Sequence record: OV696614
From: Escherichia phage Cyrano
Direction: 5' to 3' (one strand)
DNA length: 64,000 nucleotides
Positions 79 to 63,805 of the stretch are shown here, piece after piece (positions within the stretch are counted from its first letter, which is position 1; every line of letters starts with the position of its first letter). The translations under genes were made by a program, and so were the position numbers. Under the pieces are notes generated by a model. That model saw nothing but the letters and a program-made list of their open reading frames with translations. It did not search any database and was not told the origin of the DNA.

Positions 79-94
79 AAAACAATTTGTTTAA
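79..94. promoter_or_regulatory. Palindromic motif AAACAA-N-TTGTTT upstream of helicase gene
   Basis: aaaacaatttgtttaa about 18 nt upstream of the ATG at 112; same 13-bp palindrome recurs at 7 other gene 5' regions. Confidence 0.4.
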
Positions 95-111
95 AAAACA
101 AAGGAAAGCAC

Positions 112-1452
112 ATGACCGAACTTTGCCATACAGGACGCGGGCTGTCCGAAGAGTTTGATGAAGATTTCCAGAACAGACTGACGGCATATTTTTGTCGTGA
201 TCACGAGTTTCTTACTCGTGCGGGAGATCTGGTTGTGCCTAGCCAATTTGCCAATGCGGCCAATGCCATATTGGTTAATATGGTTTCGGGCTATTACCGT
301 ATGTACAAGAGCGCGCCCTCTTCATCTGCAATTCTGGATATGCTTAAGCGTGCGAAACGCGATAAGACTATCCGTGAGGAACTATTCGCCGATGTTGTTG
401 CTGCGTTTAAGCGCATTCTTGCAGAAAAATTGTCCGATACCTCGTACATGGTTGACCAGGTATCAACCTTCGCAAAAAGTGTAGCGTTTGATGATGCTCT
501 GATTAAGGCTGCTGAACTGAAAGAGAAAGGCGACTTTCAGGGGGCGATGGCAATCATGGCCAAGGTTCAGCAGATTGGATCGAACGAAGCGACCGGAATC
601 TATGACTACTACACCTCCGCAAGTGAGCGATTGAAAGCGCGTGAATATGAGGCTTCAGAGGAGTATGTGCCAAACAGCATTACAACTGGACTCCCTCTGC
701 TCGATAGGTTGCTGTACCAAAAAGGCTGGGCAAAGCGCGAAATGGTGCTCTTCATGGGGTTCGCTAAATCCGGTAAATCGACCGCAATGGGTGAGTTTTC
801 CATAAACGCAACGCTTGCTGGCTACAATGTTCTGTATCTCTCGCTGGAGGTTCACACCACCATTTTATCCGACCGTTTTGATGCAAGATTGTCGGAGACA
901 GAAATGTCCAAGCTGGTGGAACGGCGCGATGAGGTTCATCGTAAGTTGGCAGAGTTGGGAGCCACGAAGGGGATTGGTAGTTTGTGGGTGGTTGAGCGTC
1001 CGTCAGGAAGTATGTCACCGGCAGATCTGGACCGTATGCTTAACAGCATGAAAGCCAACGGCATGGTACCTGACATGGTTGTTGTCGACTACGCAGATTT
1101 GATGCGTGCCAGTTATGACCTTCGTGATGATCGCGCCAACATTCGTAGTATCTACACCGATTTACGTGCTCTTTATGACAAGCATAACGTTGCTGGGATC
1201 ACGGCATCGCAGACAAACCGTGAAGGTGGCGCGTCAGAAGTTGCCACAATGATGCACGCTGCCGACAACATCGAAAAAGTACGTATTGCTGACCTGGTAA
1301 TAACGATCAACAAAACCGAAGAAGAAGAAGCGAAAGGAGAGGCTCGTCTCTACTTTGCTGGTTCACGTAACCAGCAGGGAGGGATCAGCATTCGCGTTAA
1401 ACAAAACCTCGAACAAATGCGCTTCATTGAGCGAATCTTAGACGTTACCTAA
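112..1452 (+). CDS. DnaB-family replicative DNA helicase
   Basis: 446 aa; Walker A GFAKSGKST, Walker B-like VVVDYADLM, SQTNREG motif. Confidence 0.8.
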   Translation: MTELCHTGRGLSEEFDEDFQNRLTAYFCRDHEFLTRAGDLVVPSQFANAANAILVNMVSGYYRMYKSAPSSSAILDMLKRAKRDKTIREELFADVVAAFKRILAEKLSDTSYMVDQVSTFAKSVAFDDALIKAAELKEKGDFQGAMAIMAKVQQIGSNEATGIYDYYTSASERLKAREYEASEEYVPNSITTGLPLLDRLLYQKGWAKREMVLFMGFAKSGKSTAMGEFSINATLAGYNVLYLSLEVHTTILSDRFDARLSETEMSKLVERRDEVHRKLAELGATKGIGSLWVVERPSGSMSPADLDRMLNSMKANGMVPDMVVVDYADLMRASYDLRDDRANIRSIYTDLRALYDKHNVAGITASQTNREGGASEVATMMHAADNIEKVRIADLVITINKTEEEEAKGEARLYFAGSRNQQGGISIRVKQNLEQMRFIERILDVT

Positions 1453-1533
1453 AAAATAAGCGTGGAGAACACCTCCACGCTTGATTCATTGGTGAAACAA
1501 CTTTTCTTTTGCCAAACCACAAAAGAAAAACAC

Positions 1534-2715
1534 ATGAGCCTTTATGTTATATCAACATTTAGGTTGGTCACAATATTGCCTGTTAAAAGTGGAATTATCG
1601 TGAGCGAGCTGAAAGAGCTAATTACCGAATTAGATTTTGAACAATGGTTGGATACTGAAGGTATCGTTTATCGACGTGGAGGCGTGAGTACTCGCGGTCG
1701 TGAAGTGAATATCAAGGAGTGTCCGGTATGCGGCAGCTCCAACTGGAAGGTATATTTCAATCTGACCAGTGGCGTCGGTAAATGCTTCGCTGGTGATCAT
1801 CCCGAAGAGATTCAGTTCAATAAGCTGGTCTTCCTCAAGCACTACAGCGGCAAATCACGACGACAGTTCGAGGAATATGTGCAGAACGCCCTTCTTTCCC
1901 AGGGGTGGGCACCAAAGAAAGAAGAGCTAGTGCTTGCAAGCACAGTCGAGTTAGAGGGGCCAGTTGCACTCCCTCGTCATTACGAGCTTCCTATAGATGG
2001 CCGTCTTCCAGACTATCTGGTTGAACGAAACATATCGCCTGAAATGGCAAAATATTTTGACCTACGATACTGCGTCGAAGGCAAGCACGCCTATGTAGAT
2101 CCGTATACAGATCAGGTTAAAGGACAGATATTCGATATGCGAATACTGATACCGGTTTACGATCTGGATGGGGTAATGAAGACATTTCAGGGACGAGACA
2201 TTACCGGTACAGCAGAACGCCGCTACCTCTTTCCTATGCAGCTTCCAGCTTCAGGTAAGTTTCTCTACAACGGCCATAATGCAGTTGGCAAACAGACTGT
2301 AGTTGTCTGTGAGGGGGCGTTCGATGTTATGGGAGTTAAACGAGCTATTTTTGATGAAGAAACATTACGTGATTACGTGGAACCAATAGGAACGTTCGGG
2401 ATGCATCTATCTGGCAACACCACTCAGGATGCAGAAGATCAGTTGGGCGCGTTCCTGACGCTCAAGGCGCGTGGATTACGTAATGTGATCATGATGTGGG
2501 ATAGTGAAAAGCAAGCTATACGCAACACTATGGCCGCAGCCAAGCGACTGACCAGTATTGGTCTTAATGTCAAAGTAGCGTGTTTGGGCGAGGAAGGACT
2601 CGACCCAGGCGATGCAACGCCAGAACAAATTATCAAAGCCTATTATCGGGCAAAACCGTATACCAGACAGTTGGAGTTGCAAAGCAAGGTTTTAGGCATT
2701 AAGGCTCTATCGTAA
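1534..2715 (+). CDS. DNA primase (zinc ribbon plus TOPRIM-like)
   Basis: CPVCGSS zinc-ribbon motif, acidic VVVCEGAFD segment; start moved from track GTG 1462 to ATG 1534, which sits behind the conserved AAAAACACATG context and after a hairpin at 1460-1480. Confidence 0.65.
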   Translation: MSLYVISTFRLVTILPVKSGIIVSELKELITELDFEQWLDTEGIVYRRGGVSTRGREVNIKECPVCGSSNWKVYFNLTSGVGKCFAGDHPEEIQFNKLVFLKHYSGKSRRQFEEYVQNALLSQGWAPKKEELVLASTVELEGPVALPRHYELPIDGRLPDYLVERNISPEMAKYFDLRYCVEGKHAYVDPYTDQVKGQIFDMRILIPVYDLDGVMKTFQGRDITGTAERRYLFPMQLPASGKFLYNGHNAVGKQTVVVCEGAFDVMGVKRAIFDEETLRDYVEPIGTFGMHLSGNTTQDAEDQLGAFLTLKARGLRNVIMMWDSEKQAIRNTMAAAKRLTSIGLNVKVACLGEEGLDPGDATPEQIIKAYYRAKPYTRQLELQSKVLGIKALS

Positions 2716-2790
2716 CAAGTGCCGATAAAATAAGTAGATGATTACTTATCTTTCTGTAAGAATACTTTCATCTGTTAGCTAGGAGTTTGT

Positions 2791-3573
2791 ATGAAAGACG
2801 AAATTCAGAAATTAGCCTGCGACATCATTGATAAAACTGGTTTAGAAATCAGCGAGAGCAATCGGCTAGACATCATTGAAAAAGCCGTAAAAACAGCAAT
2901 GGATCATATCGCCACTCGTTTGGTCGAGATCCCGCTACCGGGGCTACCTTATCTGAAGGTTAAGTTACACGTATGGGGTGAACCTTCTTGTGCACGGCGT
3001 TCTGCATTAGTTGTTTTTATTAGCAAAGAAAACCCGATCAGTCTTAAAGTGCAGGTTGGGGCATGGATGGATGGCAAAGCGATCTACACAAATACCGTTT
3101 TTTGTGCGTCAAATGACAGTATTATTGAAGAGGCTATTCAAGAATCACTTCTAACTATGCATAGCTTAGTTTTGCTGGAAGACAAGCAAAACTACGAAGA
3201 GTACTTACGGTCGATAAAAGGTGAGAGAACATTGTCACTTAAAGCCGATTTCGTTACCCCGACAAACCTGTTGGAAGTCTTGCTTAATAAAGGGGCTAAT
3301 GATGCTGTAAACCTAATCAGGGAGAGCGAATATTCGACTCTTTGGGACATGTGCAAAAGCCAGTTGGATCTTGTGCATATCATTGTTGATGCGGGTAAGG
3401 CGTGTGATGGCGTAATGGCGGAATTTGCTGGGAAGGTGGTCAGGATTGCTAACGAATTACCGATGATAGAGCAAGAGGCTAAATCATACGCCACCAATCA
3501 TGTCACAGAGCTTCTTGCCCCCTATCGCTTAGAAAGCAATCAGCGCAAGATGATTAGCTGGGGAAGTTGGTAA
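2791..3573 (+). CDS. hypothetical protein
   Basis: 260-aa ORF with AGGAG RBS upstream; no recognised motifs. Confidence 0.45.
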   Translation: MKDEIQKLACDIIDKTGLEISESNRLDIIEKAVKTAMDHIATRLVEIPLPGLPYLKVKLHVWGEPSCARRSALVVFISKENPISLKVQVGAWMDGKAIYTNTVFCASNDSIIEEAIQESLLTMHSLVLLEDKQNYEEYLRSIKGERTLSLKADFVTPTNLLEVLLNKGANDAVNLIRESEYSTLWDMCKSQLDLVHIIVDAGKACDGVMAEFAGKVVRIANELPMIEQEAKSYATNHVTELLAPYRLESNQRKMISWGSW

Positions 3574-3628
3574 TCTCTCAGTGTGTCGTTTTTTACGCAA
3601 AGAATGATAGGTAAGTACAAGATTATTT

Positions 3629-4111
3629 GTGGCGGTGGTTGTGAAAGCTGATTTGTCAAAAATCCCCTCTATTTCAGGAAATAATGGTTATTCACTTCGT
3701 TGTGAGGAAGTAAAGATAAACGGTGAGTCGGCATATTGCAGCTACTCCGTTTGCCAGCACACCATTCTTGCCTTCAAAGAAAACCGTCTTCCTCGAACTT
3801 CATTCCAGTCGTGCGCAACCGCTATCAAAGCAGGCAAATGCAAGGCGTTAAAAATGATGGTTGAAGAGATTCGTAAAGGAGAATCTCTGTATTTCGAAGA
3901 TATGACCGCACTCATTAAGGAGGTTGAAGAACGGAATAAACAAGCCAGAACTATAAAACGAAAACGTGACAGTGTAACGATTAATAGCATGGTTAAGAAG
4001 AGCGCCACATCACAAACAGCGATCACTGACGTGTATGCGGCGTTGCTTGAAGAAACAACAAAAGAAACACATGAGCAAATCGATCAACATATGGAGGCAA
4101 AACAACAATGA
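3629..4111 (+). CDS. hypothetical protein (start uncertain)
   Basis: 160-aa ORF from a GTG; basic C-terminal half; true start may be an internal ATG. Confidence 0.3.
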   Translation: MAVVVKADLSKIPSISGNNGYSLRCEEVKINGESAYCSYSVCQHTILAFKENRLPRTSFQSCATAIKAGKCKALKMMVEEIRKGESLYFEDMTALIKEVEERNKQARTIKRKRDSVTINSMVKKSATSQTAITDVYAALLEETTKETHEQIDQHMEAKQQ

Positions 4112-6250: not shown

Positions 6251-6272
6251 GATAAGTATTTACTTACTTATC
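6251..6272. repeat. Intergenic palindrome family (GATAGGTAAGT..ACTTACCTATC-like)
   Basis: gataagtatttacttacttatc just after the stop at 6241. Confidence 0.4.
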
Positions 6273-7020: not shown

Positions 7021-7095
7021 GATGGTGTAGCTCAGTGGTAGAGCAGTTGGCTGTTAACCAACTGGTCGGTGGTTCGAATCCACCCACCATCGCCA
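7021..7095 (+). tRNA. tRNA-Asn (anticodon GTT)
   Basis: Cloverleaf read by hand: acceptor gatggtg/caccatc, anticodon loop ctGTTaa, T-loop ttcgaat, 3' CCA. Confidence 0.85.
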
Positions 7096-7097
7096 AT

Positions 7098-7173
7098 GCC
7101 GGTTTAGCTCAGTTGGTAGAGCACCTGCCTTGTAAGCAGGATGTCAGCGGTTCGAATCCGTTAACCGGCACCA
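7098..7173 (+). tRNA. tRNA-Thr (anticodon TGT)
   Basis: Acceptor gccggtt/aaccggc, anticodon loop ctTGTaa, T-loop ttcgaat, 3' CCA. Confidence 0.85.
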
Positions 7174-7181
7174 ACACAATT

Positions 7182-7268
7182 GGAGAGTAGAGAGCATGGT
7201 GCTCAAGCGGTCTTGAAAACCGTCCCATTGCGCAAGCGATGATGGTTCGATTCCATTACTCTCCGCCA
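7182..7268 (+). tRNA. tRNA-Ser (anticodon TGA), type II with long variable arm
   Basis: 87 nt; acceptor ggagagt/actctcc, anticodon loop ctTGAaa, long variable arm, T-loop ttcgatt, 3' CCA. Confidence 0.8.
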
Positions 7269-8267: not shown

Positions 8268-8822
8268 TCAATCTTCCCTTTGTTTTGGGTAGTGTTGTGT
8301 TCGTATCGCATAGGAAGCTCCGTCATTTAAATAAGTTAGGCCACGCTCTTGTGTAAATCTCTTCACATATCTCTTGTATGTGGCCATCAGTTCTTCGCGT
8401 TCTGCCGCAAAGAATAAAATCTGTATGCCTTCATTGTCGGCAACTTTGAGCATTAAGTCAACTAAAGTACCGTAAAGGTATTGAAGTTCACCTAAAGTAA
8501 GATTAAAAGACCCTTCGGGTTTGGCAAATACGTTAATTGGCTCTTCCGCTCCAAGAGCGACATTCTGGAGCTGTTCTTGCTGCCTGTCAAGTTGAATCAT
8601 GTCCACAAAACTAACGACAGATACACACAACCCATAAACATCAGCACCTAACATATTATGCATAGTTTCTGCGGCAACAGGATCTAAAGAAGGAGGGCAA
8701 AAGACTAAACGGTATCTAGCCTTACGAGCTTCATTGCCAGAGAAAACAAAGTCTATATCTAAATATGACAGATCACCCGGCAATGAAGCCAAACCAGGTG
8801 TAACCAACTTATGCAAGTGCAT
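8268..8822 (-). CDS. hypothetical protein
   Basis: 184-aa minus-strand ORF in a locally reversed segment next to the integrase. Confidence 0.4.
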   Translation of the reverse strand: MHLHKLVTPGLASLPGDLSYLDIDFVFSGNEARKARYRLVFCPPSLDPVAAETMHNMLGADVYGLCVSVVSFVDMIQLDRQQEQLQNVALGAEEPINVFAKPEGSFNLTLGELQYLYGTLVDLMLKVADNEGIQILFFAAEREELMATYKRYVKRFTQERGLTYLNDGASYAIRTQHYPKQRED

Positions 8823-9089
8823 CTGTCTCGAATCCCTCTTTATTAGTATAAGTTGTCTTATTGTACCCTACCAAACGTTTATATGCATTGTTATGTATTA
8901 TTTTGATTTTCAATATTACCTCCTAGAACGAAGGGTAGATTTCAAAAAACGCATCCTCAATGATTCCATACCTACTATGTATGGAATCATTACTGAAAAT
9001 GAGTTACTTTTACTCTTGATCCTATAAGAATCTATGCCTAATATACTGTTTACTTATACAGTGCATCGGCGTAACTCGGTGATTGTCAT

Positions 9090-10193
9090 ATGAAAAATAG
9101 CTTTGACAGAGCACGCGCTGCGGAGAACACCTCAAAAGAGGCGATTGAGTATCTCGAAAGAGCATCTCAAATGCAGGCCGTTATGATCTCCCAGGTCAGC
9201 AATGACATGAGATTCTCGGACGCATTCATGTTATTCACTCGCTTATCTCTGCTGATAACAAGACGTCGGCCAGAGATCGCTGTTCATTGTATTTTGATAC
9301 ATGTTTTGCCGCACATTGCCGATGTAAAAGTAAGTGATATTAATAGGTTCATGGTGAACCAACTGGTCAACCCACTAATACTGGATGGCAAAATTGTTAT
9401 GGGTCGCCGCGTTTTCTCTCTGATGAAGCAGTTCCTCAGCTGGTGCGCCTTCCAGGGGATGATCGACGTGTCACCGTTAAACGATATGTCACTTAACAAA
9501 GTTGCCGGTGGCGCAAAGCCCACACCTCGCGAGCGGAAGCTAACCGACGCAGAGGTATGGGTGTTCTGGAATATATGGGACTACTTCAATGTGTGTGCTG
9601 GTACAAAATGGGCGGCCAGGCTATGTCTTGTATCCGCAAGACGACCTGACGAAGTACTGCGGGCTAAAAAAAGTGAGTTCAACCTCCAGCGTGGGGTTTG
9701 GAATCAAGGCAAGAGAAACAAATCAGCCCGTGAGCATTCTCTGCCTTTAAGCACATTAATGCGCACATGCATTGAAGAGTTATTCGAATATGGTAAAGGC
9801 AGCCAGTGGCTTGTGCCTTCGAATAAAAAAATCGGGAAAGATCTTCCGATGTCTAAAGTGGCAATAGCCCAGGCATTACGCCGTATCCTGGAACGACCAG
9901 AACTGATGGAGCTTGAGCCATTTACACCACGAGATTTGCGTCGTACTGCGCGTAGTTACTTCCCAGCATTAGGCATAAGCCAGGAGGTATCACGTAAAAT
10001 CATGAACCACAGTCTTGAGGGGATAGATCGGGTCTACGACCGGCACGATTATATGGACGAGATGCGAGACGCCTTAGAAAGTTTCTCGACGTACATCGCA
10101 TCAATCGTAGAGCAACCGGATTTAGACGAAATTGACCACAAATTTAAGGGAGATCGTCTATCAACAGAGCTTATTCGTGTAAATTTTTCATAG
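9090..10193 (+). CDS. tyrosine recombinase / integrase (P4-like)
   Basis: C-terminal catalytic region PRDLRRTARS..KIMNHSLEGIDRVYDRHDY (R, H-x-x-R-like, terminal Tyr). Confidence 0.7.
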   Translation: MKNSFDRARAAENTSKEAIEYLERASQMQAVMISQVSNDMRFSDAFMLFTRLSLLITRRRPEIAVHCILIHVLPHIADVKVSDINRFMVNQLVNPLILDGKIVMGRRVFSLMKQFLSWCAFQGMIDVSPLNDMSLNKVAGGAKPTPRERKLTDAEVWVFWNIWDYFNVCAGTKWAARLCLVSARRPDEVLRAKKSEFNLQRGVWNQGKRNKSAREHSLPLSTLMRTCIEELFEYGKGSQWLVPSNKKIGKDLPMSKVAIAQALRRILERPELMELEPFTPRDLRRTARSYFPALGISQEVSRKIMNHSLEGIDRVYDRHDYMDEMRDALESFSTYIASIVEQPDLDEIDHKFKGDRLSTELIRVNFS

Positions 10194-10574
10194 AGACTTT
10201 ATGGCCTCAACAACCTTTTGTGATGCGCCTTTCTCTTTACCGAATCGCTCGTTATATGCAGCAAGAACCTGTTTTTCGTCCTCGTTAAGAGGAGCAGTGC
10301 CTTCTTTGTATAAAAATGCTGCGAGTTCGGGTTGGCGTTCTTCCAGCACCATCATCATAAGACGACTTGGCTCAATGCCCAGTGCCAGCGCCAGCGGACG
10401 AACCTTATCGATAGGCAAAGGAATTTTGCCGCTTTTAATTAAAGAAAGGTTGTTGGCGTTTTTATACCCAATTGTTTTGGCTATCTGGGCCTGGCTCATA
10501 GGTGAGGATTCAATCAACCCTGCGATAAAAGCAGCGTAGCGACTTTCTATAAATTCAATCTTGTTATCAGACAT
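10188..10574 (-). CDS. XRE-family helix-turn-helix transcriptional regulator
   Basis: 128 aa; HTH MSQAQIAKTIGYKNANNLSLIKSGK; divergent from downstream genes. Confidence 0.7.
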   Translation of the reverse strand: MSDNKIEFIESRYAAFIAGLIESSPMSQAQIAKTIGYKNANNLSLIKSGKIPLPIDKVRPLALALGIEPSRLMMMVLEERQPELAAFLYKEGTAPLNEDEKQVLAAYNERFGKEKGASQKVVEAIKSL

Positions 10575-11038: not shown

Positions 11039-11136
11039 CCCCTCTTCTCCCTGCGCGAATGGCTTAGTTCCCTGTTCGCGCAGTGCTACATTAAACACAC
11101 TAGTAAATAATTTGTTTTCATAACAAAGGATTAGCC

Positions 11137-13245
11137 ATGTCTAAAAAACGTTCCATCAAAGAGGTTCAGGACTTCCGTGACAGTGTAAAACGAGTAGTCG
11201 CTCTCCTTTCAGGTAAAAACATCCCTGTTGCAGAACGAGGGGACGACGCTTATGTACGCTATAACGATGATGGAGAGCCAATTCTCGTAAACATCCCATC
11301 AATCCCGGATAACGCAACACCGGCATTGATGAATGCTGTGCGCGGATTTCTCGATCATGAGGTTGCTCACATTTTGTTTACCGATATTCGTGTGTCCAAC
11401 AAAATGAGAGAAAAAGGACGCGTTCCTTCCTGGTCGCTATGGAATGCCTTAGAAGACGTGTTCATCGAGCGAAAAATGGGTCAGGTCTTTAACGGAACAA
11501 GACGTAATCTGATGGCAACTCAGCGCCTTATTATCGAAAAAGTCTTTAAACCAAAGGCTTCAGAGGCTATTGCTTATTGTGGCAAAGATCAGCGCGCGCT
11601 TTTTCTAAACTTCTTTCTCTGTCCGGTTGTAAGAGCCTGGGATGGCCAAGCACCGTTCGTAGATTTCATGGATGAATATTGGCCTGTCATTGAGAAACCA
11701 ATTTCATTATTAAAAGAACATGGTATCGATGTGGCCGTGCGTAACATGTCTTGCACCGAGGATTGTGTAAAGGTGGCTGCGACCATAGCTAAGATCCTCA
11801 AAGACACTGAAAGTGAAAGCAACGGTAAGGAGTCAGCTCCGGGAAAAACTTCCGATCCTTCAGACGCTGACCAGACGGATGCCTCTGGAGAAAACAATGA
11901 AGATAACGAAGATCATGAGACACCCTCAGCGTTAGATAATCACAAATCTATCAAATCAGAATCACACAATAAGCACAAACATGATAATAATGACAGTGAT
12001 GATTTAGATAATTCTGAATCATCAGAAACAATATTCGATGATACAGAAAATGATAAAGAGGTATCAGATTCTGATGCTTCTGATAACGCGGCGTCAGAAT
12101 CATTAACCGCTGACCACGAAAAAAGAAAAACGACAGAAGACGGCTCTTCAGATATTCCAACTCCGTCAAAAATGAGTCTGGAAGAGGCTTTAGAGGAGCT
12201 GGATAGCATAGAAGATGAAGTCGGAGGCATGACAGAAGATGCTCTATCCGAAACGATTAAAAGCGAGTTAACAGAAAGCTCGAAAAGCGAATACAGGCCA
12301 TACAATCGCTCATACGACTTCATCGGCTCGATTGATCAGGCAGAAGCCCATATCAAACGGCTTATTAAAACATTCTCCGATATTGATTTAGGAGGATGTC
12401 CAATCAGCCGCTATCGCATCGTTCCTGAAGGCAACCAGCTCTTCGACAAATATATTGAAAAGCATCTTTCGTCAGGTGTTTCGTCGACGCTGGCAAAAGA
12501 CCTGGAGCGAGCAATAGCAAGCAGAAACAGAGTTCAGTTTATACCGGGCCAGCGTCGGGGGCGCATTCATGGTTCTAGTATCTACAGATTAGCAATGAAT
12601 GATGATCGCGTGTTTCGTAAAAAAGAAGAATCTAAAGCCGTTAACGCCTGTGTTCAACAAGTGATTGATTTATCAGGTTCAATGAGGGGTATAACGATAC
12701 AATTGGCTCTTGCAAGTGCATATACCATCGCCGATGCCCTTGATCGAATAAATGTTCCCAACATTATCACCGGCTTCACTACATTTGGTAGTCATATGGC
12801 GGCAGGAGAACTTAAGGCTGTCAAGTATGAGTTCTCTCGCTTTGAATCTTTAATGCTACCTATCATCAAAAATTGGAATGAAAAGGTAAATTCTCGCGAA
12901 GTTCGCTCACGTATGGGGTGCGTAGGCTACACATTCCCACTTCTTAATAACGTGGATGGTGAAAGCATAGCCAGCCTTGCATCGTTATTTTCCGGTCGCA
13001 TGGAGGACAGGAAGATCATGCTTGTTCTGAGCGATGGCGAGCCGTGGGCTGTTGGGAGAGGTTTTGACGCTCATTTGCGTTCGGTTGCGAAGCAAATTGA
13101 AACGCAGACTGACATTGATTTGATGGCAATTGGCATCATGACTGACGCACCGGAGAGATTTTACTCAAATCATGCCCTGGTAACGAGCGTTGATAGTCTT
13201 GGTTCATCTGTAGTTACTGAACTATCTCGTATCATTTTAAAGTGA
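11137..13245 (+). CDS. von Willebrand factor A domain protein (CobT-like)
   Basis: 702 aa; C-terminal vWA MIDAS motif VIDLSGSM; long acidic Ser/Asp/Glu-rich linker. Confidence 0.7.
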   Translation: MSKKRSIKEVQDFRDSVKRVVALLSGKNIPVAERGDDAYVRYNDDGEPILVNIPSIPDNATPALMNAVRGFLDHEVAHILFTDIRVSNKMREKGRVPSWSLWNALEDVFIERKMGQVFNGTRRNLMATQRLIIEKVFKPKASEAIAYCGKDQRALFLNFFLCPVVRAWDGQAPFVDFMDEYWPVIEKPISLLKEHGIDVAVRNMSCTEDCVKVAATIAKILKDTESESNGKESAPGKTSDPSDADQTDASGENNEDNEDHETPSALDNHKSIKSESHNKHKHDNNDSDDLDNSESSETIFDDTENDKEVSDSDASDNAASESLTADHEKRKTTEDGSSDIPTPSKMSLEEALEELDSIEDEVGGMTEDALSETIKSELTESSKSEYRPYNRSYDFIGSIDQAEAHIKRLIKTFSDIDLGGCPISRYRIVPEGNQLFDKYIEKHLSSGVSSTLAKDLERAIASRNRVQFIPGQRRGRIHGSSIYRLAMNDDRVFRKKEESKAVNACVQQVIDLSGSMRGITIQLALASAYTIADALDRINVPNIITGFTTFGSHMAAGELKAVKYEFSRFESLMLPIIKNWNEKVNSREVRSRMGCVGYTFPLLNNVDGESIASLASLFSGRMEDRKIMLVLSDGEPWAVGRGFDAHLRSVAKQIETQTDIDLMAIGIMTDAPERFYSNHALVTSVDSLGSSVVTELSRIILK

Positions 13246-18295: not shown

Positions 18296-18566
18296 AGAAT
18301 TATGGCGCTTGTTGAGGAAGTCACTCCTCTTACGCACTTTGTTTTGCCATGCCGGCAGTTAGCTTCTGCCTTTGACTATTCATGCGGCAACCCCGCATTT
18401 CGCCACAATGGGCAATTCACTTTTATGGAATAAACTGGCCGTTGTGTCGATTTAATTAGCATGGCCTTACCATGCTAATTTATTCAACTTGTACAATCCT
18501 ACAAATCTATCCACTCAGGCTTACACCGTCTTCGTTATTGTAGAAATGAGGATCATCAGCGTTGAA

Positions 18567-18782
18567 TCAGCTTAGAGCAACGACATTTGCTGCTGCTGGG
18601 CCTTTAGCACCATTCTCGATAGAGAATTCGACCTGCTGGCCTTCTTCCAAAGTGCGGAAATTATTACTCTGAATTGCCGAAAAATGTACAAAAACATCTT
18701 TACTGCCATCAGCAGGAGAAATAAAGCCAAAGCCTTTATCAGAGTTAAACCATTTTACTAAACCAGTCATTTTATTAGACAT
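18567..18782 (-). CDS. cold-shock protein, CspA family
   Basis: Start moved to internal ATG giving about 70 aa: [30 protein letters not shown] (RNP1/RNP2 motifs). Confidence 0.85.
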
Positions 18783-19111
18783 AGATATTACCTTCTTAAT
18801 TTTGTGAGCCACATAGTGCGGCGAGAATTTGATCTGTATAGATTGGGACTTACTTAGGCACTTAAGGAGGAGACTCACGAAGAAGGGAAATCAGAAGATA
18901 ACACTGAACTGAGACTGCTTTACTAAAACTGCTTACATAAGGTCTGTCTTGCAAACCAACGATGCTATTAACGCATACCCCTTCTTTTCATGCAACCTTT
19001 ATTTTTCAAAGATAACTAATTTTTGTCACCATTGGTTTAGTAAACGTTAACGAACCAGACGATGCCAGACACCTTTACAGAGAACAGATGCCCGCCAATT
19101 GGCGGGCATCA

Positions 19112-19675
19112 TTATGCGCATTTCGCAATATCTTTGCGGCGTTTAATCAGTTTCTCCGCAATTTGCTCTATTTCGTTGAAATCTTTCGAGACGCTGTTTC
19201 GAAGCGCCAGATTCCATTTACTCAAAGTTCGGGCATTTTGGACAATTTGATCGCCCTCTTTAAGTCGTCCGTTATTCATGAGCCATTCAGCCACATCAGC
19301 CCAATCCCAGAGAGGAGACTGGCCTTTTATGCGTTGTACAGGGCAAGGGAAGTCGCCGCTTCCGCGCTTACCGTCTTTGAGCAACGCCACTGCCTGGCGA
19401 GACAGGTCTGTCAGTTCCGCGATATCGCTTAAGCCCACAAGAGCCGAGTCGACGGATTCAACAATTGCACCGATACCGGCTGATTCAATATTGTCGACCG
19501 CAGATGCGATAGCTGCATCAAGTGATTGTGCTTCGCGGTCAAATTCTACATAGACGGAGTTTCCATATGCGCAAATTAGCGCATCGTCACAGCCGTTTTG
19601 GTACAGCGCGTCTTCCAGTCCTTCCGTCTCATACGATACGCCTGAGAGCGTCAGAGTGAAGTTATAAAGCGCCAT
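19112..19675 (-). CDS. hypothetical protein with probable HTH
   Basis: Start moved to MALYNF with AAGGA RBS; central LSDIAELTDLSRQAVAL resembles an HTH. Confidence 0.4.
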   Translation of the reverse strand: MALYNFTLTLSGVSYETEGLEDALYQNGCDDALICAYGNSVYVEFDREAQSLDAAIASAVDNIESAGIGAIVESVDSALVGLSDIAELTDLSRQAVALLKDGKRGSGDFPCPVQRIKGQSPLWDWADVAEWLMNNGRLKEGDQIVQNARTLSKWNLALRNSVSKDFNEIEQIAEKLIKRRKDIAKCA

Positions 19676-19735
19676 AGTTTTCCTTTGAAGATAGTTGGAC
19701 AGTTTCTGCAAAAGGCGGCTAATGCCGCCTTGAAA

Positions 19736-26532: not shown

Positions 26533-26548
26533 CTCCCCTTAAAAGTTC

Positions 26549-26574
26549 AGGCGTCCAGTTGGACGCCTTTTTTA
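26549..26574 (+). terminator. Rho-independent terminator
   Basis: aggcgtccagttggacgcct hairpin then ttttttat. Confidence 0.65.
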
Positions 26575-26593
26575 TCGCAATTATCTTATTAAG

Positions 26594-26609
26594 AAAACAA
26601 TTTGTTTAA
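26594..26609. promoter_or_regulatory. Palindromic motif AAACAA-N-TTGTTT
   Basis: aaaacaatttgtttaa immediately after terminator, upstream of the 26747 gene. Confidence 0.4.
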
Positions 26610-26746
26610 AGGGTTAAGAAAATATAACAGCTATTAAGAAACTCTACGATGCCGCAAACGCGGCTCTGGATGTTATTGATGATGAAGTATCAAAAGGCTT
26701 TCCTGAACCTGATTGGGCGCATCAGCTACGAAACGCTATCGCCGAA

Positions 26747-38324: not shown

Positions 38325-38340
38325 ATAACAACTTGTTTAA
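38325..38340. promoter_or_regulatory. Palindromic motif AAACAA-N-TTGTTT
   Basis: ataacaacttgtttaa about 30 nt upstream of the nrdB start. Confidence 0.4.
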
Positions 38341-38369: not shown

Positions 38370-39512
38370 ATGTCATATTCAACGTTCCGTTTGGGTGCTA
38401 ATGATGCAACCAAAGAGCCTATGTTCCTCGGACAATCTGTCAACGTGGCACGTTACGATCAGCAAAAATACCGTGATTTTGAAAAGTTGATTGAACGTCA
38501 ATTGTCTTTCTTCTGGCGGCCGGAAGAAGTTGATATTTCGAGCGATCGTATCGACTTCAACACGAAGCTGCGGGACCACGAACGTCACATTTTTCTGAGC
38601 AATCTCCGTTATCAAACGTTACTCGATTCAGTTCAGGGACGTAGCCCAAATGCAACGCTGCTGCCGCTTATCTCTATTCCTGAACTGGAAACGTGGGTTG
38701 AAACATGGTCTTTCTCTGAGACTATCCATAGCCGCAGCTACACCCACATTATTCGTGGCATGGTGGACGATCCGAGCATTGTTTTTGACGGTATTGTTAC
38801 GGATGAAGAAATCATCAACCGAGCGATCAGTATCTCTGCTGAATATGACAGGCTTTATGGGATGACCTGCGAGCGCCAGTCGTTAGGTGAGAAAGAGTTT
38901 GAACGTCTGTACGTAAATGAATATGGCTGGGAGCCATACCCTTTGCATCGTCAGCTTTTCCGCACGTTGGTGTCCATTAATGCGCTTGAGGCGATCCGTT
39001 TCTATGTAAGTTTTGCATGTACGTTTGCCTTTGGCGAACGGAAGTTGCTTGAGGGTAACACCAAAATTATGCGCTTTATTGCCCGTGATGAAGCTCTGCA
39101 TTGCGAAGGAACTGAACGCATGATCCGCTTCATGCGTACCGGTCGCGAAGGTTTATTGTGGAAAGAGATTGCTGCTGATGAAGAAAACGTCATTTACGAC
39201 ACCATGAAATCAGTCGCCGAACAAGAAATGAACTGGGCAGACTATCTCTTCAAAGACGGTTCGATGATTGGTTTAAACGCGGATATTCTGAAGACCTATG
39301 TAAAATACCGAACCAATCTGGCTATGAATCGTCTTGGCCTGAAGGCTTTATTTCCAGAGGTTACCACCGATCCGCTGGTCTGGATGAACAAGTGGTTGTT
39401 AACCGACACACTGCAAATTGCACCACAAGAGGCAGAGCAAAGCACATATCTGGTAGGTCAGATCGATTCTACCGTGGATAAGGCTTCTCTAAGCCAGTTT
39501 GCTGACCTGTAA
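38370..39512 (+). CDS. nrdB: Ribonucleoside-diphosphate reductase beta subunit
   Basis: 380 aa; blocks [51 protein letters not shown] match my recollection of E. coli NrdB. Confidence 0.85.
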
Positions 39513-48546: not shown

Positions 48547-48561
48547 TAAAACAACTTGTTT
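48547..48561. promoter_or_regulatory. Palindromic motif AAACAA-N-TTGTTT
   Basis: aaaacaacttgtttt about 25 nt upstream of the 48586 start. Confidence 0.4.
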
Positions 48562-48585: not shown

Positions 48586-49011
48586 ATGTTAGGTTTCTTC
48601 AAAAAGAAAACTCGTAAAGCAGTTATCGAAGTCAAAAAAATGGAGAACCGTGATGCGGTTGAGGCCACCGTGTGGGGCGCGTACATGATCTCCTATGCCG
48701 ACGGCACATGTGACGCAAAAGAAATTGCCATTCTTGAGAAGACAATTGCAGCTCTGCCTGCGTTTTCTCCGTTTGCTGGTGAAATTGCCCAAATGAGCGC
48801 CAATATCCGTGCTCGTTACGAAGCGTCCCCTCGTTCTGCTAATGCACAGGCTATTCGTGAGCTGTCTGATATTGCGGGTACTCCAGAGGCGGTCGATGTT
48901 CTGTGTCTGTGCCTTGATATTGCCGACCAGGACGGCATTGATGAACCAGAAGAGCAGGCGCTGAAAAAGATCGCCCAGGCGCTTCAGTTGTCACTGGATG
49001 CTTATCTCTAA
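48586..49011 (+). CDS. TerB-like domain protein (tentative)
   Basis: 141 aa; helical acidic pattern ADGTCDAKEIAILEK..EQALKKIA reminiscent of TerB; tentative. Confidence 0.4.
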   Translation: MLGFFKKKTRKAVIEVKKMENRDAVEATVWGAYMISYADGTCDAKEIAILEKTIAALPAFSPFAGEIAQMSANIRARYEASPRSANAQAIRELSDIAGTPEAVDVLCLCLDIADQDGIDEPEEQALKKIAQALQLSLDAYL

Positions 49012-49276
49012 TGCTTGAGAGATTCCGGCTTGTGACCGTCATTGCTCTTCTGGTGATAGCGGTGTTGGTGGATTTTACGGGAAAGATGATGTCTGTCATT
49101 TCTGATGGCGTCCTCATTGGTCTGGCGATCTACTTCGCTTATCCGCTAGTCCGTAAAGCAACGTGTTAATGACAAGGGCCAAATGGCCCTTGTGTTTCGT
49201 TGACCGAAATAGAGAGTTTGCACCTTTACGTTTAGCTTGCTCCCCTTTTATGCCACATCACAATAAAGCCAATAAG

Positions 49277-49292
49277 AAAACAACTTGTTTAA
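49277..49292. promoter_or_regulatory. Palindromic motif AAACAA-N-TTGTTT
   Basis: aaaacaacttgtttaa upstream of the 49309 start. Confidence 0.4.
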
Positions 49293-49308: not shown

Positions 49309-49878
49309 ATGTGCAAGAAATGCAAAGCGATAGCTGATGAACAAAACGCCTTATTCGAAGAAATGGATGCTAATGAGCTGGTCAAAATGTTAGCCATTCT
49401 TCGAGGAATAGAAGACGTTTCCATATTTGAGAGAGTGGTTACAGCACTTAATTTTGAGTCCACCTTTGAAGAGCCAACTCAGGTTGTAGCTTTAGCACAT
49501 CATTTCGGTGTTCATTATCTTGCTGAAAAAGAGCGCGCTGATAAGTTGCAGGCGACTTTGGATATGGTGAGCGAGACTCAACGAACTGATGACACTAACA
49601 AGAGTGAGGCGATTATTGCCAGCAAAGATCGTGAAATTGCTGGGCTTAAATCCTCTCTAACGATGTTGATGTCTGCGTTCAATCTTATGTCTTCTCAGGC
49701 GGGTTATAAAATGCCATCACTAAACAGCGATGATCCGATGGCCGTTCGTCAGCTTTTGGGAGCAATGGCCGACCAACTCGACGACACAAAGAGTCGCCTT
49801 GAAGACATGATGCGTGAGTTAAGCCATCGACATAACCTCGCAACACAACCACACAAAGTCTTTCAAAGCTCTAATTGA
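49309..49878 (+). CDS. hypothetical protein
   Basis: 189 aa; N-terminal CKKC. Confidence 0.45.
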   Translation: MCKKCKAIADEQNALFEEMDANELVKMLAILRGIEDVSIFERVVTALNFESTFEEPTQVVALAHHFGVHYLAEKERADKLQATLDMVSETQRTDDTNKSEAIIASKDREIAGLKSSLTMLMSAFNLMSSQAGYKMPSLNSDDPMAVRQLLGAMADQLDDTKSRLEDMMRELSHRHNLATQPHKVFQSSN

Positions 49879-53766: not shown

Positions 53767-53903
53767 ACGCTACAAATCCTTCGGCATGAATAAATAAAGG
53801 CCATAAGTTGTGGCCTTAAATAAATTGTTTTCTACCTTTTCTTATTTGTGAAAATAACCAGCACTTGGTAGTGCTTATGTAACAGCAAAGAAGAGAAAAA
53901 CAC

Positions 53904-54455
53904 ATGAGTAACAAAATCGAAAATCCCGTAGTTCTCATTCACAAGCGCGAGAACCACGACTCCTATGCGGTGGCGATCACCAATGGGAGTCACGATTTTT
54001 ACGATGGCCTGCTAATGGCCTCAGTGTCGCCTGATAAGGCAGACAACTCTTTTGCCGTCTTCGCTATGGTTGGTTACTACATGGCTGCCGAAATTGAGAA
54101 GTTGCGGGCGCAGAGAGACGCATTAGCGGCGGAGAATGTGGCATTGCGATCTAAGGCTGCGGAACTGGCACATGAAGCGTCAAAAATTTACTCGGCATAT
54201 AACGCCACTATCACAGAGCCTGACGGGGATTTTATGGACATGCAGACATTGCATGAAATGCAGTGCATAGAAACTCCAGCCACCGATGCTTTTCTGGCTG
54301 AAGTACGTGCGCAGGGCGTGGATATGGCTCGTAACGCGATGATTGATTTTGTTGATGGTGAAGTTGGGCCAAACAAGAACGTTCCGGGGCTGATTAGAGG
54401 CGCAGAGATATGCGTAAGTATTGCTGAACAGCTTCGTAAAGGAGTCATCCAGTGA
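53904..54455 (+). CDS. hypothetical protein (lambdoid early-region-like)
   Basis: 183 aa; AGAGAAAAACACATG context; DAFLAEVRAQGVDMA resembles ead/Ea22-type proteins. Confidence 0.45.
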   Translation: MSNKIENPVVLIHKRENHDSYAVAITNGSHDFYDGLLMASVSPDKADNSFAVFAMVGYYMAAEIEKLRAQRDALAAENVALRSKAAELAHEASKIYSAYNATITEPDGDFMDMQTLHEMQCIETPATDAFLAEVRAQGVDMARNAMIDFVDGEVGPNKNVPGLIRGAEICVSIAEQLRKGVIQ

Positions 54456-57274: not shown

Positions 57275-57294
57275 TACTGTATGTGTATACAGTA
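57275..57294. promoter_or_regulatory. LexA (SOS) box
   Basis: tactgtatgtgtatacagta: perfect CTGT-N8-ACAG palindrome about 17 nt upstream of the humD-like start. Confidence 0.8.
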
Positions 57295-57700: not shown

Positions 57701-57712
57701 GAGAACTGATTA

Positions 57713-57736: not shown

Positions 57737-57737
57737 A

Positions 57738-58838: not shown

Positions 58839-58995
58839 CCCGTCTCCTTTATTTTAATTTGCGCAATTGTCGCCTTGTAGTGTACTCCAGCTACGACATT
58901 TAATCATTTATGAGAAATGCTGTTATCACATGGCAGACATAAGGCCATTTTGTTACTATCAAGCCCCTTTTCACTACAAAGAAGTAATGCCTACT

Positions 58996-61029: not shown

Positions 61030-61049
61030 TTAAACAACCTCTCTTCGCA

Positions 61050-61076
61050 ATGCCCGGCAACACGCCGGGCATTTTC
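61050..61076 (+). terminator. Rho-independent terminator after metG
   Basis: gcccggcaacacgccgggc hairpin then atttt. Confidence 0.65.
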
Positions 61077-61102
61077 ATATAGACACAATCCCTTCTGATT
61101 TA

Positions 61103-61117
61103 CACAGTACCTAAAAC
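61103..61117. promoter_or_regulatory. Palindromic motif AAACAA-N-TTGTTT
   Basis: aaaacaatttgtttt downstream of metG. Confidence 0.4.
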
Positions 61118-61153
61118 AATTTGTTTTCTGCCTTTTGTTGATTGAGATAATAA

Positions 61154-61167
61154 GCCACATAAGAAAA
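61154..61167. promoter_or_regulatory. Palindromic motif AAACAA-N-TTGTTT
   Basis: aaaacaaattgttt about 15 nt upstream of the 61182 start. Confidence 0.4.
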
Positions 61168-61181
61168 CAAATTGTTTCGGA

Positions 61182-61490
61182 GTGGTTGAAATGTTGAACA
61201 TTACCCAAGCCTACCAGGTGGCATTGATCAGTTCATCTCATACATCAGAGGAAGATGCTCGCCGATTCATGATCGCAAGCAATGAGCTGGATTGGGTTTC
61301 ACAAATTGATGGCGGTTGTATTGTCCACGCCGGGTTACAGGATGATGTCTGGAAAGAGGACTTGCGTCGATATGGTATATCCGAAGGCGCGATTGCTAAC
61401 ATTCAGAAAGTACTTGATGTAGGCTTTGACTCTGTACATTTTGATTGTGGTGCACCGGTCGTTGAAGGGCTTGAGTGCTGGAACTGGTAA
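61182..61490 (+). CDS. hypothetical protein
   Basis: 102 aa. Confidence 0.45.
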   Translation: MVEMLNITQAYQVALISSSHTSEEDARRFMIASNELDWVSQIDGGCIVHAGLQDDVWKEDLRRYGISEGAIANIQKVLDVGFDSVHFDCGAPVVEGLECWNW

Positions 61491-61535
61491 CAGATATTAA
61501 AGCATTGGTAGTTTGTTTTTAGGATTATCAAAGAA

Positions 61536-62270
61536 ATGAAAAAGTTGAAAAGTTTAGAAATCCCTGGAACTGGTTATAAATTCTTTATGGACAACGCGGA
61601 GTGTGCACCTAACGCGTTGGAAAAAATACAAAGTCTTATCAACAGCCTTACTGAAGAAGCGAAAGAACTGAAGAGCGAGGCGACAAAGGACAATACAGCT
61701 AAAATCCAATGCTTAAATCTCGTCTCTTATTGTTTATATCAAGTATCCAAAACACTGATTAAAGGCAATATCTATTACGACGATGAAGACACCTCGACAC
61801 CTGAAGAAAAAGATAGCGATGAAGAACTCTATGAAGATATCTCTACTAGTGCGGGTCACGCTGCCTTCGATGCTATGGGTGAATCGTCAGGCATCAGATC
61901 ATTTGTTGAACAGAACAATTCGACAATAATGATTGAGTACTGTGAACAAACAAGCTCCAAGGCCATACATGTTCTTCACGATGTTGCTGCAGGGGTTCGC
62001 TGTGAGGCTGAAGCGGTCAGAAAAGATGTATTTGGTGCAGACAGTAATACCGTGAAAGCGTTTATCAACAGTGCTCTGCTAAATTCTTACTCAAACCTTA
62101 TAGTCAATGCGGCACTATGCGCAAATTCAGGTGAAGAACACATTGTCATAACTGAAACCAAACATGAGCATCAACAGTCACCAACCATAGAAGAGGTAAC
62201 TGCATTGGCTATCAAACAGGCGAGTGAAATTAGTGATGAAATTCTCTCTCTGCTAAACAAAACTAAGTAA
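61536..62270 (+). CDS. hypothetical acidic protein
   Basis: 244 aa; acidic, Ser/Glu-rich. Confidence 0.45.
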   Translation: MKKLKSLEIPGTGYKFFMDNAECAPNALEKIQSLINSLTEEAKELKSEATKDNTAKIQCLNLVSYCLYQVSKTLIKGNIYYDDEDTSTPEEKDSDEELYEDISTSAGHAAFDAMGESSGIRSFVEQNNSTIMIEYCEQTSSKAIHVLHDVAAGVRCEAEAVRKDVFGADSNTVKAFINSALLNSYSNLIVNAALCANSGEEHIVITETKHEHQQSPTIEEVTALAIKQASEISDEILSLLNKTK

Positions 62271-62399
62271 AACATTGATAATGGCGGTCACAATTTGATT
62301 CTTTTCTATAAGAATCCGTTGATCGCCACTACTCCCCTTCCATACCCGCAACCACATCCTTAAATATCAATAAGTTATAGTTGTTTATACAATCAAGAA

Positions 62400-63120
62400 A
62401 ACAACTGAATAACAGATCAACGAAACGTCAACGCTTTCACCCGATTTGGCCTAAAAAATTGACGTTTTCACACATCACTGCTTATACCCGTAATTCTACG
62501 CAGCAGACAGCACCACAGCGTTCAATTTTCACCACAGACGACTCAACACACTACCAACAAAAACACACGCTCAAAATCGCTCCCGTTGCGTTACATAACC
62601 ATATAAACAACTTATTTTCAGGCATAACAAAACAACTAAATAACACATATGCCATTACCCAAAACAACCAACCTCTTTATGGCAGGCTACCGAAAAGACC
62701 CACCTCTTCTTCCCAGGCTACCGGACAACCAACCTAACTTTCACAGGCAATCCGAAAACATTCATACGCGCGATACCCACGACACGCCATTACCCAAACA
62801 GCGAAGAAACACCAGAATCACTGAAACCCCAACGAAGCCTGTAACCGCAAGGTTTCTCTCAATCCCAAAAGACACGAAACATAACAATCACGGGAAACGC
62901 CATTACCCAATACACGAATAACTACAAAAGCCTTTCACACACTCCAGACAAACAACTCAAACACAATAACGAAAGGAATCGCCCACCTGCCATTACTCCA
63001 TACACGGAGAAGAACAATCACCAAAACGACGAGAACACCCCATAGAAGAACCACCGCAAAACTAACGAAACCACATACACCGACAGAGAAAACAACACAC
63101 CCAATTCACCAACAGAAATA
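62400..63120. repeat. Strand-asymmetric A+C-rich noncoding region with dispersed GCCATTACYC repeats
   Basis: Top strand almost devoid of G and T runs; four copies of gccattac(c/t)c at about 62651, 62786, 62899 and 62989. Confidence 0.5.
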
Positions 63121-63329
63121 GTCGCCGTATAGAACGTTCTGGAAGGAGTGAGCATTAACGCCTATAGAGAGGTTGAAACAGATAAAACACGAAGAAAACA
63201 CAACATGTATAGCGAACAAGACAGGTATGTATAAGTGGGGAGGGAAGGAGGGGTGTCGCCTCCTTTTTCGTATTTATTCAACTCCTGATTTTATCCCCCG
63301 TAACACCCCTACGGTCAGCCTTCGGTCCA

Positions 63330-63475
63330 TACAGGGAAAAGGCTGCATCCCGCTACAGAAACGGCTGGGTTGCCTTCGGGGAACGGCTGGAGGTTTTCAG
63401 GGAAACGGTCGAGTTGCCTGTGTGGATTTCGGGAAAAGGCTCGATGCCGGTTCAGGAACGGCGGCGTACCGGTAT
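63330..63475. repeat. G-rich iteron-like direct repeat array
   Basis: About six units resembling cAGGGAAAcGGCTsG at 22-23 bp periodicity. Confidence 0.5.
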
Positions 63476-63789
63476 AGCGTGAGGGAGAGTTGCGGCTACC
63501 CACCTGTAATGTGCGGGAAGAAGAGAGGCGCTCACGTGCAGGCGAACTTACTTACCGCAGGATTCCCTCTGAATGCCCAACTACAGCGTAATTGTGCCAG
63601 ACAGCCAACGGGCCACAATCGATTTCAGTAGGTTTTCGGGGAGATGATTATTCTGCCCACCAGCCACCTTCGGCCACTAAATCAGAATAATGTAAAAAGT
63701 GTACTCGGTACTGAACCTGAAAACTCACTGCCAAAACCACATTCACCGGAATAAAATCCTTTTTCGCCTTTGCGTTATTGCGATAATAA

Positions 63790-63805
63790 CACCATCAAGA
63801 AAACA
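63790..63805. promoter_or_regulatory. Palindromic motif AAACAT-N-TTGTTT (one mismatch)
   Basis: gaaaacatgttgtttaa about 10 nt upstream of the partial gene. Confidence 0.35.

Follow-up and report, generated by a model that had tools for sequence, protein, structure and literature searches.

A 13-base-pair (bp) dyad, AAACAA-N-TTGTTT, which recurs in front of many genes of Escherichia phage Cyrano, is probably the operator of a global DNA-binding repressor, itself probably dimeric, of the phage-plasmids of the SSU5/pHCM2/pMT1 type. We analysed 64,000 nucleotides (nt) of this element (sequence record OV696614), hereafter the window, and propose that a dimeric repressor occupies the dyad at -38, at +14 or at both positions on about 20 extended -10 promoters and would in this way silence them together during plasmid carriage. 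E. coli LF82 harbours Cyrano as its SSU5-like phage-plasmid pLF82, at ~5.5 copies in each cell and with a 39-fold induction in response to ciprofloxacin. Gene coordinates in the window equal the published Cyrano coordinates minus 32,000 exactly (matched through the cobT-like gene, CYRAN_99, MetRS and CYRAN_101), so that, by gene coordinates and not by sequence comparison, the window appears to be Cyrano 32,001-96,000. Its identity is 97% to 'Escherichia phage CMS-2020a', 95% to PhiR41_1 and ~80% to Salmonella phage SSU5.

The original prediction, made from the letters of the window, had proposed that the palindrome recurs, and its over-representation is borne out. Exact AAACAANTTGTTT is found six times (at 80, 26595, 48549, 49278, 61114 and 61165) against 0.02 expected from dinucleotide-preserving shuffles of the window, none of 100 of which reached six. 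Allowing one mismatch brings the matches to 11, against 0.46 expected, the five one-mismatch copies being those at 11105, 38326, 53818, 62605 and 63801. When every dyad with 5-6-nt arms was counted without bias, AAACAA-N1-TTGTTT ranked first among all dyads in the window. The eight copies listed by the original prediction are all real, with coordinates that were 1-11 nt off (61103, 61154 and 63790 become 61114, 61165 and 63801); the copies at 11105, 53818 and 62605 had been overlooked, and a mismatch, there ascribed to the last copy only, is also present at 38326 (TAACAA...). Scored with the published Cyrano annotation, 9 of the 11 copies are intergenic, in a window of which 16.3% is intergenic DNA (binomial P = 3e-6). 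The predicted location 10-35 nt upstream of start codons holds for seven copies, all of what we call the downstream class, with gaps of 13-31 nt to the annotated start. Copies 53818 and 61114 are 64-73 nt 5' of the start, ahead of the promoter rather than behind it. At 63801 the annotated start falls within the palindrome, with another ATG 12 nt further on, and the copy at 62605 is atypical.

The same dyad is dispersed over related elements. A composite full element, made of the window and the rest of CP053388.1, carries 17 copies: 11 in the window, three in the next 2 kb, two before terS, 25 bp apart, and one before parA, with none in its ~30-kb structural module. There are 18 copies in PhiR41_1 and 20 in SSU5, most of them at orthologous promoters, and the count is 17-20 per full genome across the composite element, PhiR41_1, SSU5 and PO552. 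No palindrome is more over-represented in any of the Enterobacteriaceae relatives examined. In the distant but syntenic Klebsiella plasmids CP110724.1 and CP037443.1, AAACAA-N1-TTGTTT is again the top palindrome (18 copies in total in CP037443.1), and Y. pestis pMT1 keeps the dyad at two early promoters and at terS. The dyad is absent from the syntenic Pectobacterium (Drgb1) and Moellerella relatives. Where it is present, orthologous copies persist across diverged relatives while the flanks drift and the central base varies. Scanning IMG/VR with the extended motif returned mostly single, chance-like matches, together with SSU5-sized contigs, and homologues of SSU5-type marker genes occur on ~800 PLSDB plasmids, including those of the S. 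Typhi pHCM2 type and Y. pestis pMT1.

The conserved sequence reaches well past the 13-mer, is asymmetric, and ties the dyad to a promoter in one of two ways. In the downstream class (TGn)GATAAT comes first and is separated from the dyad by 13-14 nt, the last of them being CCAAnAAGA; AA, a ribosome-binding site and ATG follow the dyad. In the upstream class, often after a hairpin, the dyad is followed by TCTgCCTTTT and further bases, 19 nt in all, and then by (TGn)GATAAT. We examined the phasing on 79 dyads from five genomes, a pooled set whose counts are not fully independent, as it includes orthologous sites of related genomes: a -10-like hexamer stands exactly 19 nt 3' of the dyad in 24 (1.1 expected) and 13-14 nt 5' of it in 21 (2.3 expected). 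Taking as an extended -10 a hexamer whose second base is A and whose sixth is T, with TG in front of it at -15/-14, we found the TG at 20 of the 24 upstream-class and 11 of the 21 downstream-class promoters, compared with 6.4% of -10-like hexamers genome-wide, and GATAAT as the dominant hexamer. Judged by these motifs, the promoters at the phased dyads are extended -10 sigma-70 promoters with poor -35 elements. The dyad looks less like the specialised promoter element that the original prediction had offered as an option than like an add-on to ordinary extended -10 sigma-70 promoters, usable on either side. In one position it would span ~+8 to +20 (centre ~+14), between the presumptive start site and the ribosome-binding site, and in the other ~-44 to -32 (centre ~-38), over the -35 region; at some promoters both are filled, 51 bp apart (61114/61165 and the SSU5 orthologue). 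The +14 position prevails in the E. coli/Salmonella lineage, with 13 of 17 copies in the E. coli element and 7 of 11 in the window, and the -38 position in the distant Klebsiella plasmids.

We compared these positions with published RNA sequencing of LF82 from overnight culture in lysogeny broth (LB), using per-gene values with a background median of 9.8. The first genes behind a dyad are at 5.0-12.9 in 12 of 14 cases (cobT-like 7.8, CYRAN_58 5.7, nrdB 12.9, TciA-like 7.0, CYRAN_87 7.1, Eae-like 6.3, CYRAN_101 7.5, CYRAN_103 5.0, CYRAN_105 12.8, CYRAN_106 12.2, CYRAN_108 5.7 and terS 7.1), the exceptions being the helicase at 21 and parA at 49.8. That near-consensus extended -10 promoters are nevertheless silent argues for repression. 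In our proposal, the dyad promoters would be constitutive for host RNA polymerase, and a protein bound at either position would occlude the polymerase or block its escape, with two dyads at one promoter perhaps cooperating. Some 17-20 transcription units would be held off together in the plasmid state, among them the helicase, the cobT-like gene, nrdB, the TciA-like gene and many small early genes and, outside the window, the terS late-operon leader and parA. Induction by ciprofloxacin, which is SOS-linked in Cyrano, would then remove the repressor and release these units together. The transcription starts, repression rather than activation, and dimeric binding are parts of the scheme that we infer.

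An operator serving a co-regulated gene set is the best supported part of the original prediction: flanks and central base vary around a conserved dyad, the dyad is phased to -10 hexamers at two offsets, no RNA structure is found, and transcription of the genes that follow it is at background or close to it during carriage. The set comprises the helicase, nrdB and unknowns named at the time and is wider, taking in the cobT-like and TciA-like genes, several small genes, the terS late-operon leader and parA. The regulator may be encoded by the element, as was also proposed.

Recognition of the dyad as double-stranded DNA is favoured, because the leaders are unfolded, Rfam gives no match, sequence changes are uncompensated and the upstream-class copies would be outside the transcript of their own promoter. 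Six leaders gave folding energies of -0.3 to -2.5 kcal/mol, with z ~0 against shuffles and no hairpin, and the dyad lay mostly outside the minimum-energy structure; since the leaders fold no better than shuffles, an RNA hairpin or another structured cis-regulatory RNA was rejected. No Rfam family matched any copy of the dyad, and in the variant copies a lone change in one arm or the other is not compensated by the opposite arm. The upstream-class copies lie 5' of the -10, hence outside the transcript of that promoter. If the dyad works from both -38 and +14, occlusion on DNA would be the sole explanation.

As to the protein that might bind this operator, the leading candidate is an FljA-family protein (CYRAN_114) encoded ~5 kb past the window. 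It belongs to an operon that runs leftward, against the lytic direction, 5-8 kb past the window end, and whose conserved genes encode a DEAD-box/UvsW-like helicase, a 92-amino-acid protein (CYRAN_117), the FljA-family protein and a 216-amino-acid protein. This operon is transcribed in the carried state (helicase 46, 92-amino-acid protein 114 and FljA-like protein 18 in overnight LB culture; the latter at log2 7-8 in other RNA-sequencing conditions), and its promoter has no AAACAA dyad. The FljA-like protein matches Pfam Flag1_repress (PF03614) over its full length (E = 1.3e-68), is labelled 'transcriptional repressor' in PHROG, is encoded in every SSU5-type element examined and was found on 834 plasmids of this group; a sequence search of the PDB returned no match to it. 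It is a tandem Hfq/Sm-like protein without a helix-turn-helix, and the sole regulator-annotated core protein that is both conserved and transcribed during carriage. Core genes that are common to the dyad-bearing elements and barely recognisable in Pectobacterium encode four small or unknown proteins, the TciA-like protein and the FljA-like protein. Motifs PSRRDFF-IC and FDWV-RI are shared by true FljA and most dyad-bearing lineages (partly degenerate in PO552), and both dyad-less lineages have different residues at these positions. It counts against this candidate that it is only 25-38% identical in some lineages with an identical dyad. Pairwise comparison also places a 27% FljA homologue at the same position in the Pectobacterium element. 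The covariation of dyad and FljA is thus non-discriminating, the dyad being constant at 25-38% protein identity and dyad-less Pectobacterium keeping a homologue. An annotated bona fide Hfq is encoded directly 5' of the DnaB-like helicase gene in Pectobacterium Drgb1 (L237:48354-48575), an observation worth setting beside the Hfq-like fold of the FljA family.

Other possible binders are CYRAN_117 and a host factor. CYRAN_117 resembles a ribbon-helix-helix protein by eye, its AlphaFold2 model is unusable (predicted local distance difference test score, pLDDT, 54), and its N-terminal strand is not the same in lineages with and without the dyad. Pfam searches with ~25 further core proteins revealed no DNA-binding domain. 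Three other annotated or suspected regulators were set aside. CYRAN_123 (88 amino acids), next to the double dyad of terS, was rejected as the maintenance repressor, being silent in carriage and present in dyad-less Pectobacterium; it is conserved at 74-100%, winged-helix-like, has a weak full-length match to LexA_DNA_bind (E = 0.07), and may serve the second dyad instead. The gene at 19112-19711 (minus strand), 'excisionase and transcriptional regulator' in PHROG, is a HicB antitoxin in the Cyrano annotation and is absent from PO552. The 'putative repressor' CYRAN_45 (10188-10574, minus strand), with a weak HTH_19 match, lies beside the integrase and is expressed in the carried state; it is an unlikely binder, as SSU5 has 20 dyads and no CYRAN_45 homologue.

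Several observations weigh against a dyad-binding repressor, or at least do not help it. All the binders named here are candidates. The foremost of them, as an Hfq/Sm-like protein, fits RNA binding better than binding to a DNA dyad, the Sm fold not being a reader of dyad DNA, and the type member of its family, FljA, acts on mRNA, binding the fliC message and blocking its translation. parA is expressed in the carried state despite its downstream-class dyad, and with about three quarters of all Cyrano genes silent, the silence of the dyad genes is consistent with repression and not discriminating. In addition, at 29 of the 79 dyads, among them the ones ahead of the helicase gene, nrdB, terS and parA, a canonical -10 is missing from the phased offsets, and the phasing counts suffer from the shared ancestry of pooled sites. 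A simple -35/-10 consensus scan calls none of these promoters, because their -35 elements are poor; the analysis of phased hexamers and TG superseded that scan.

Control could instead be exerted on RNA, with the tandem-Hfq-like protein of the FljA family binding the motif in its transcribed form, 5'-AAnAAGAAAACAAnUUGUUUAA-, just 5' of the ribosome-binding site, blocking translation and destabilising the message in the manner of FljA at the fliC leader. In favour of this reading, a full-length FljA-family protein is present in every SSU5-type element examined and transcribed during carriage, FljA itself stops translation by binding fliC mRNA, and the downstream-class dyad would lie within the 5' leader, between the start site and the ribosome-binding site, which is also where the FljA target lies, and 13-31 nt from the start codon, its left half A-rich with an ARN-like pattern and its right half U-rich. 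The Salmonella fliC leader, CCCAATAACATCAAGTTGTAAT..AAGGA, can be set against the module GCCAATAAGAAAACAAnTTGTTTAAGGA; more fully, the Salmonella and Citrobacter leader CCCAATAACATCAAGTTGTAATTGATAAGGAAAAGATCATG and the module GCCAATAAGAAAACAAnTTGTTTAAGGAG have in common CCAATAA, CAAGTTGT and an AAGGA ribosome-binding site, with agreement at 8 of the 12 dyad positions. A resemblance at 8 of 12 positions has, however, a ~13% chance of arising within a 60-nt leader by our own estimate, and recognition of a single strand needs no perfect dyad symmetry, nor is there a hairpin. The placement in a leader holds by inference for downstream-class dyads and not for the upstream-class ones, which prevail in the distant relatives, precede the -10 and are absent from that mRNA; a protein acting on RNA could not reach them. 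FljA has one known target, on mRNA, whereas here there are ~20 sites, many upstream of the start site, and the low identity of the FljA-like proteins across lineages with one dyad counts here too. We therefore consider control at the RNA level unlikely. It is also tempting to speculate that the FljA-family protein, with its Hfq-like Sm fold, is the master regulator of the SSU5/pHCM2/pMT1-type phage-plasmids and reads AAGAAAACAA-N-TTGTTT on ~20 transcription units, as nascent or mature leader RNA and perhaps as DNA, and that Salmonella FljA is its domesticated descendant. This is doubtful; if true, lysogeny maintenance would be built on an Hfq-like fold instead of a helix-turn-helix repressor, and the fliC leader would carry a degenerate phage operator, linking phage immunity to flagellar phase variation.

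The remaining alternatives concern DNA. As an activator site or an intrinsic promoter element, the dyad at -38 would offer its TTGTTT arm as the -35 and its left arm as a proximal UP-like A-tract, or would recruit a class-II-type activator; upstream-class dyads are indeed centred at ~-38 on extended -10 promoters with a weak -35, TTG is common to TTGTTT and the -35 consensus, and silence during carriage would also fit a missing activator. This is quite unlikely, as 13 of 17 copies (7 of 11 in the window) are at ~+14, where an activator, a -35 or an UP element cannot work, the 19 nt between TTGTTT and the hexamer are a poor spacing for a -35, conservation covers both arms and not the right one alone, and after infection the early genes must fire with the host polymerase alone. 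A host transcription factor of Enterobacteriaceae and Yersinia, tuning the promoters of the element to a host signal, would account for a dyad that is invariant across lineages whose candidate regulators are 25-38% identical, and that is found only in elements of Enterobacteriaceae and Yersinia and is missing from Pectobacterium and Moellerella relatives which keep all the candidate regulators. Yet in P1 and the IncP plasmids the proteins that bind dispersed operators are encoded by the element itself, and no E. coli regulator is known to us to have this consensus. We give a host factor a slim chance. Finally, the dyad could have no binding function of its own and have been dispersed, through duplication or recombination, within a mobile promoter cassette similar to the promoter-early-stem-loop (PeSL) cassettes of T4-type phages, since several places between small early genes have a ~60-bp module (hairpin, dyad, gCCTTTT, TGnGATAAT, CCAAnAAGA, dyad). 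We find this very improbable: the dyad exceeds all other parts of the module in conservation by far, also stands at promoters with unrelated flanks (helicase, nrdB, parA, terS), and changes promoter side between lineages with its exact phase kept.

A repressor acting through dispersed operators, as we propose, has precedents in other replicons. In P1, likewise a phage-plasmid, the C1 operator is scattered over many promoters and overlaps them, so that replication and lytic functions are held off together. The elements studied here show such dispersal, with 17-20 copies per genome that are intergenic and phased to the -10. The P1 operators are reportedly asymmetric 17-mers bound by a C1 monomer. 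In contrast, the dyad is a symmetric 13-mer at two fixed phases (-38 and +14), and asymmetric 17-bp sites are not what we find. The KorA/KorB system of IncP plasmids (RK2/RP4) comes close in architecture, with perfect 12-13-bp palindromes that are repeated over many promoters of a single replicon, each in a set place with respect to the -10 and -35, and that coordinate the backbone; the likeness ends there, as the dyad is unrelated in sequence to the KorA and KorB operators. KorB is a member of the ParB family. Two ParB_N proteins are encoded by the element, but transcription of their operon (CYRAN_119-123) does not rise above background during carriage, and an expressed KorA or ParB-type binder was not found. 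With a symmetric site, an unrelated sequence and ParB-type proteins that are silent in carriage, the dyad system belongs to neither the P1 C1 nor the IncP Kor type. PeSL cassettes, which are thought to drive gene shuffling in T4-type phages, also combine a terminator hairpin and an early promoter repeated between small early genes. They have no operator, however, whereas the conserved core here is the dyad, which occurs outside the cassette too. A hairpin-dyad-promoter cassette recurs between small early genes at 53796-53830 and 26540-26607 in the window, and at 85580-85614 and 87603-87637 in SSU5.

Literature searches on the operators, promoters, repressors and transcriptomes of SSU5 and pHCM2 returned no description of the dyad, and the global operator regulon of a phage-plasmid that it would mark appears to be undescribed in the searchable literature; nothing was found there either on how SSU5-type elements decide for carriage as a plasmid or for the lytic cycle. 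Few large plasmids are as common in Enterobacteriaceae as the SSU5-type phage-plasmids. Our result provides a cis-element (the 13-mer dyad), a regulon (~20 promoters) and a short list of candidate binders, and makes the switch between carriage and lysis directly testable in LF82, for which induction and transcriptome data already exist.

The copies in the window can be described in order. The downstream-class dyad AAACAATTTGTTT at 80-92 ends 19 nt before the DnaB-like helicase gene (112-1452, CYRAN_32) and is kept at the orthologous promoters of SSU5 and PhiR41_1. The one-mismatch copy AAATAATTTGTTT (11105-11117) also ends 19 nt before its gene, the cobT-like CYRAN_47 (11137-13245), and its SSU5 orthologue is a perfect dyad. 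At 26595-26607, AAACAATTTGTTT follows a terminator-like hairpin ahead of CYRAN_58. Here, within 26624-26635, the ATG that starts the gene in PhiR41_1 has become ATA, and the published start is an ATT 9 nt further on; the start of CYRAN_58 is either non-canonical or decayed. The copy TAACAACTTGTTT at 38326-38338, whose single mismatch is identical in the orthologues, ends 31 nt before nrdB (38370-39512, CYRAN_70), and AAACAACTTGTTT at 48549-48561 ends 24 nt before the TciA/TerB-like CYRAN_85 (48586-49011). A promoter module on the plus strand at 49259-49290, composed of a -10-like CACAAT (49259-49264), 13 nt and the dyad AAACAACTTGTTT (49278-49290), stands ahead of CYRAN_87 (49309-49878).

The upstream class is seen at 53818-53855 (plus strand), where a terminator-like hairpin is followed by the dyad AAATAAATTGTTT (53818-53830), 19 nt and the extended -10 TGt-GAAAAT (53850-53855), before the Eae-like CYRAN_93 (53904-54455). 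Both positions are occupied in the double-operator promoter at 61114-61177 (plus strand) of CYRAN_101 (61191-61490, DUF5983): one dyad at 61114-61126, centred at ~-38, the extended -10 TGa-GATAAT at 61146-61151, and a second dyad at 61165-61177, at ~+8 to +20, with centres 51 bp apart; SSU5 has the same pair at 88319/88370. The context of AAACAACTTATTT (62605-62617, one mismatch) is atypical, within the annotated TTG-start open reading frame CYRAN_103 and with an alternative ATG (62649) following after 31 nt, and this copy is conserved in PhiR41_1 and SSU5. The last module, at 63782-63813 (plus strand) ahead of CYRAN_105, consists of the extended -10 TGc-GATAAT (63782-63787), 13 nt and the dyad AAACATGTTGTTT (63801-63813, one mismatch). 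Outside the window, the dyads in the terS leader (composite 75298-75400, SSU5 56-133, pMT1 L242:20385-20470) are followed by a GC-rich hairpin and T-run, agagcgcatggacgcgctct-gtgtgtttt, directly 5' of the terS ribosome-binding site, which suggests an additional termination or antitermination step.

LexA-box-like sequences (CTGT-N8-ACAG) are present at 57275-57294, before the umuD-like CYRAN_98, and at 9044-9063, before the integrase CYRAN_44; from their sequence they are possible SOS inputs to this ciprofloxacin-inducible element. The dyad itself was rejected as a LexA box, its sequence being different. Another dyad, (G/A)TAAGTA-NN-TACTTA(C/T), in most cases with TAT behind it, is likewise dispersed and has 20 matches with up to two mismatches (1.85 expected), including those at 6253, 13264, 20660, 25451, 27073, 31200, 40600, 45437, 47652 and 52625 of the window, and also occurs in the structural module outside it. 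The genes that it fronts are others (cobS-like, thyA, CYRAN_59 and structural genes), and it is found in every lineage with a lineage-specific spelling, such as TATGTAnnTACATA in CP037443.1 and TATGTA or AGGTAT-N4-ATACCT in Pectobacterium. By its motif and placement it looks like another class of promoter or operator, possibly middle or late. CYRAN_43 (8268-8822, minus strand; 184 amino acids) is transcribed during carriage at a level of 7084, ~700 times the background of 9.8. Its product matches no Pfam family and lacks homologues in SSU5 and PO552, and the gene may be a moron with high expression or may conceal a small RNA. In addition, the window contains three tandem tRNA genes (7021-7265) and, at 18542-18960 on the minus strand, a CspA-like gene with a full cspA thermoregulator 5' leader (Rfam RF01766, 188 bits).

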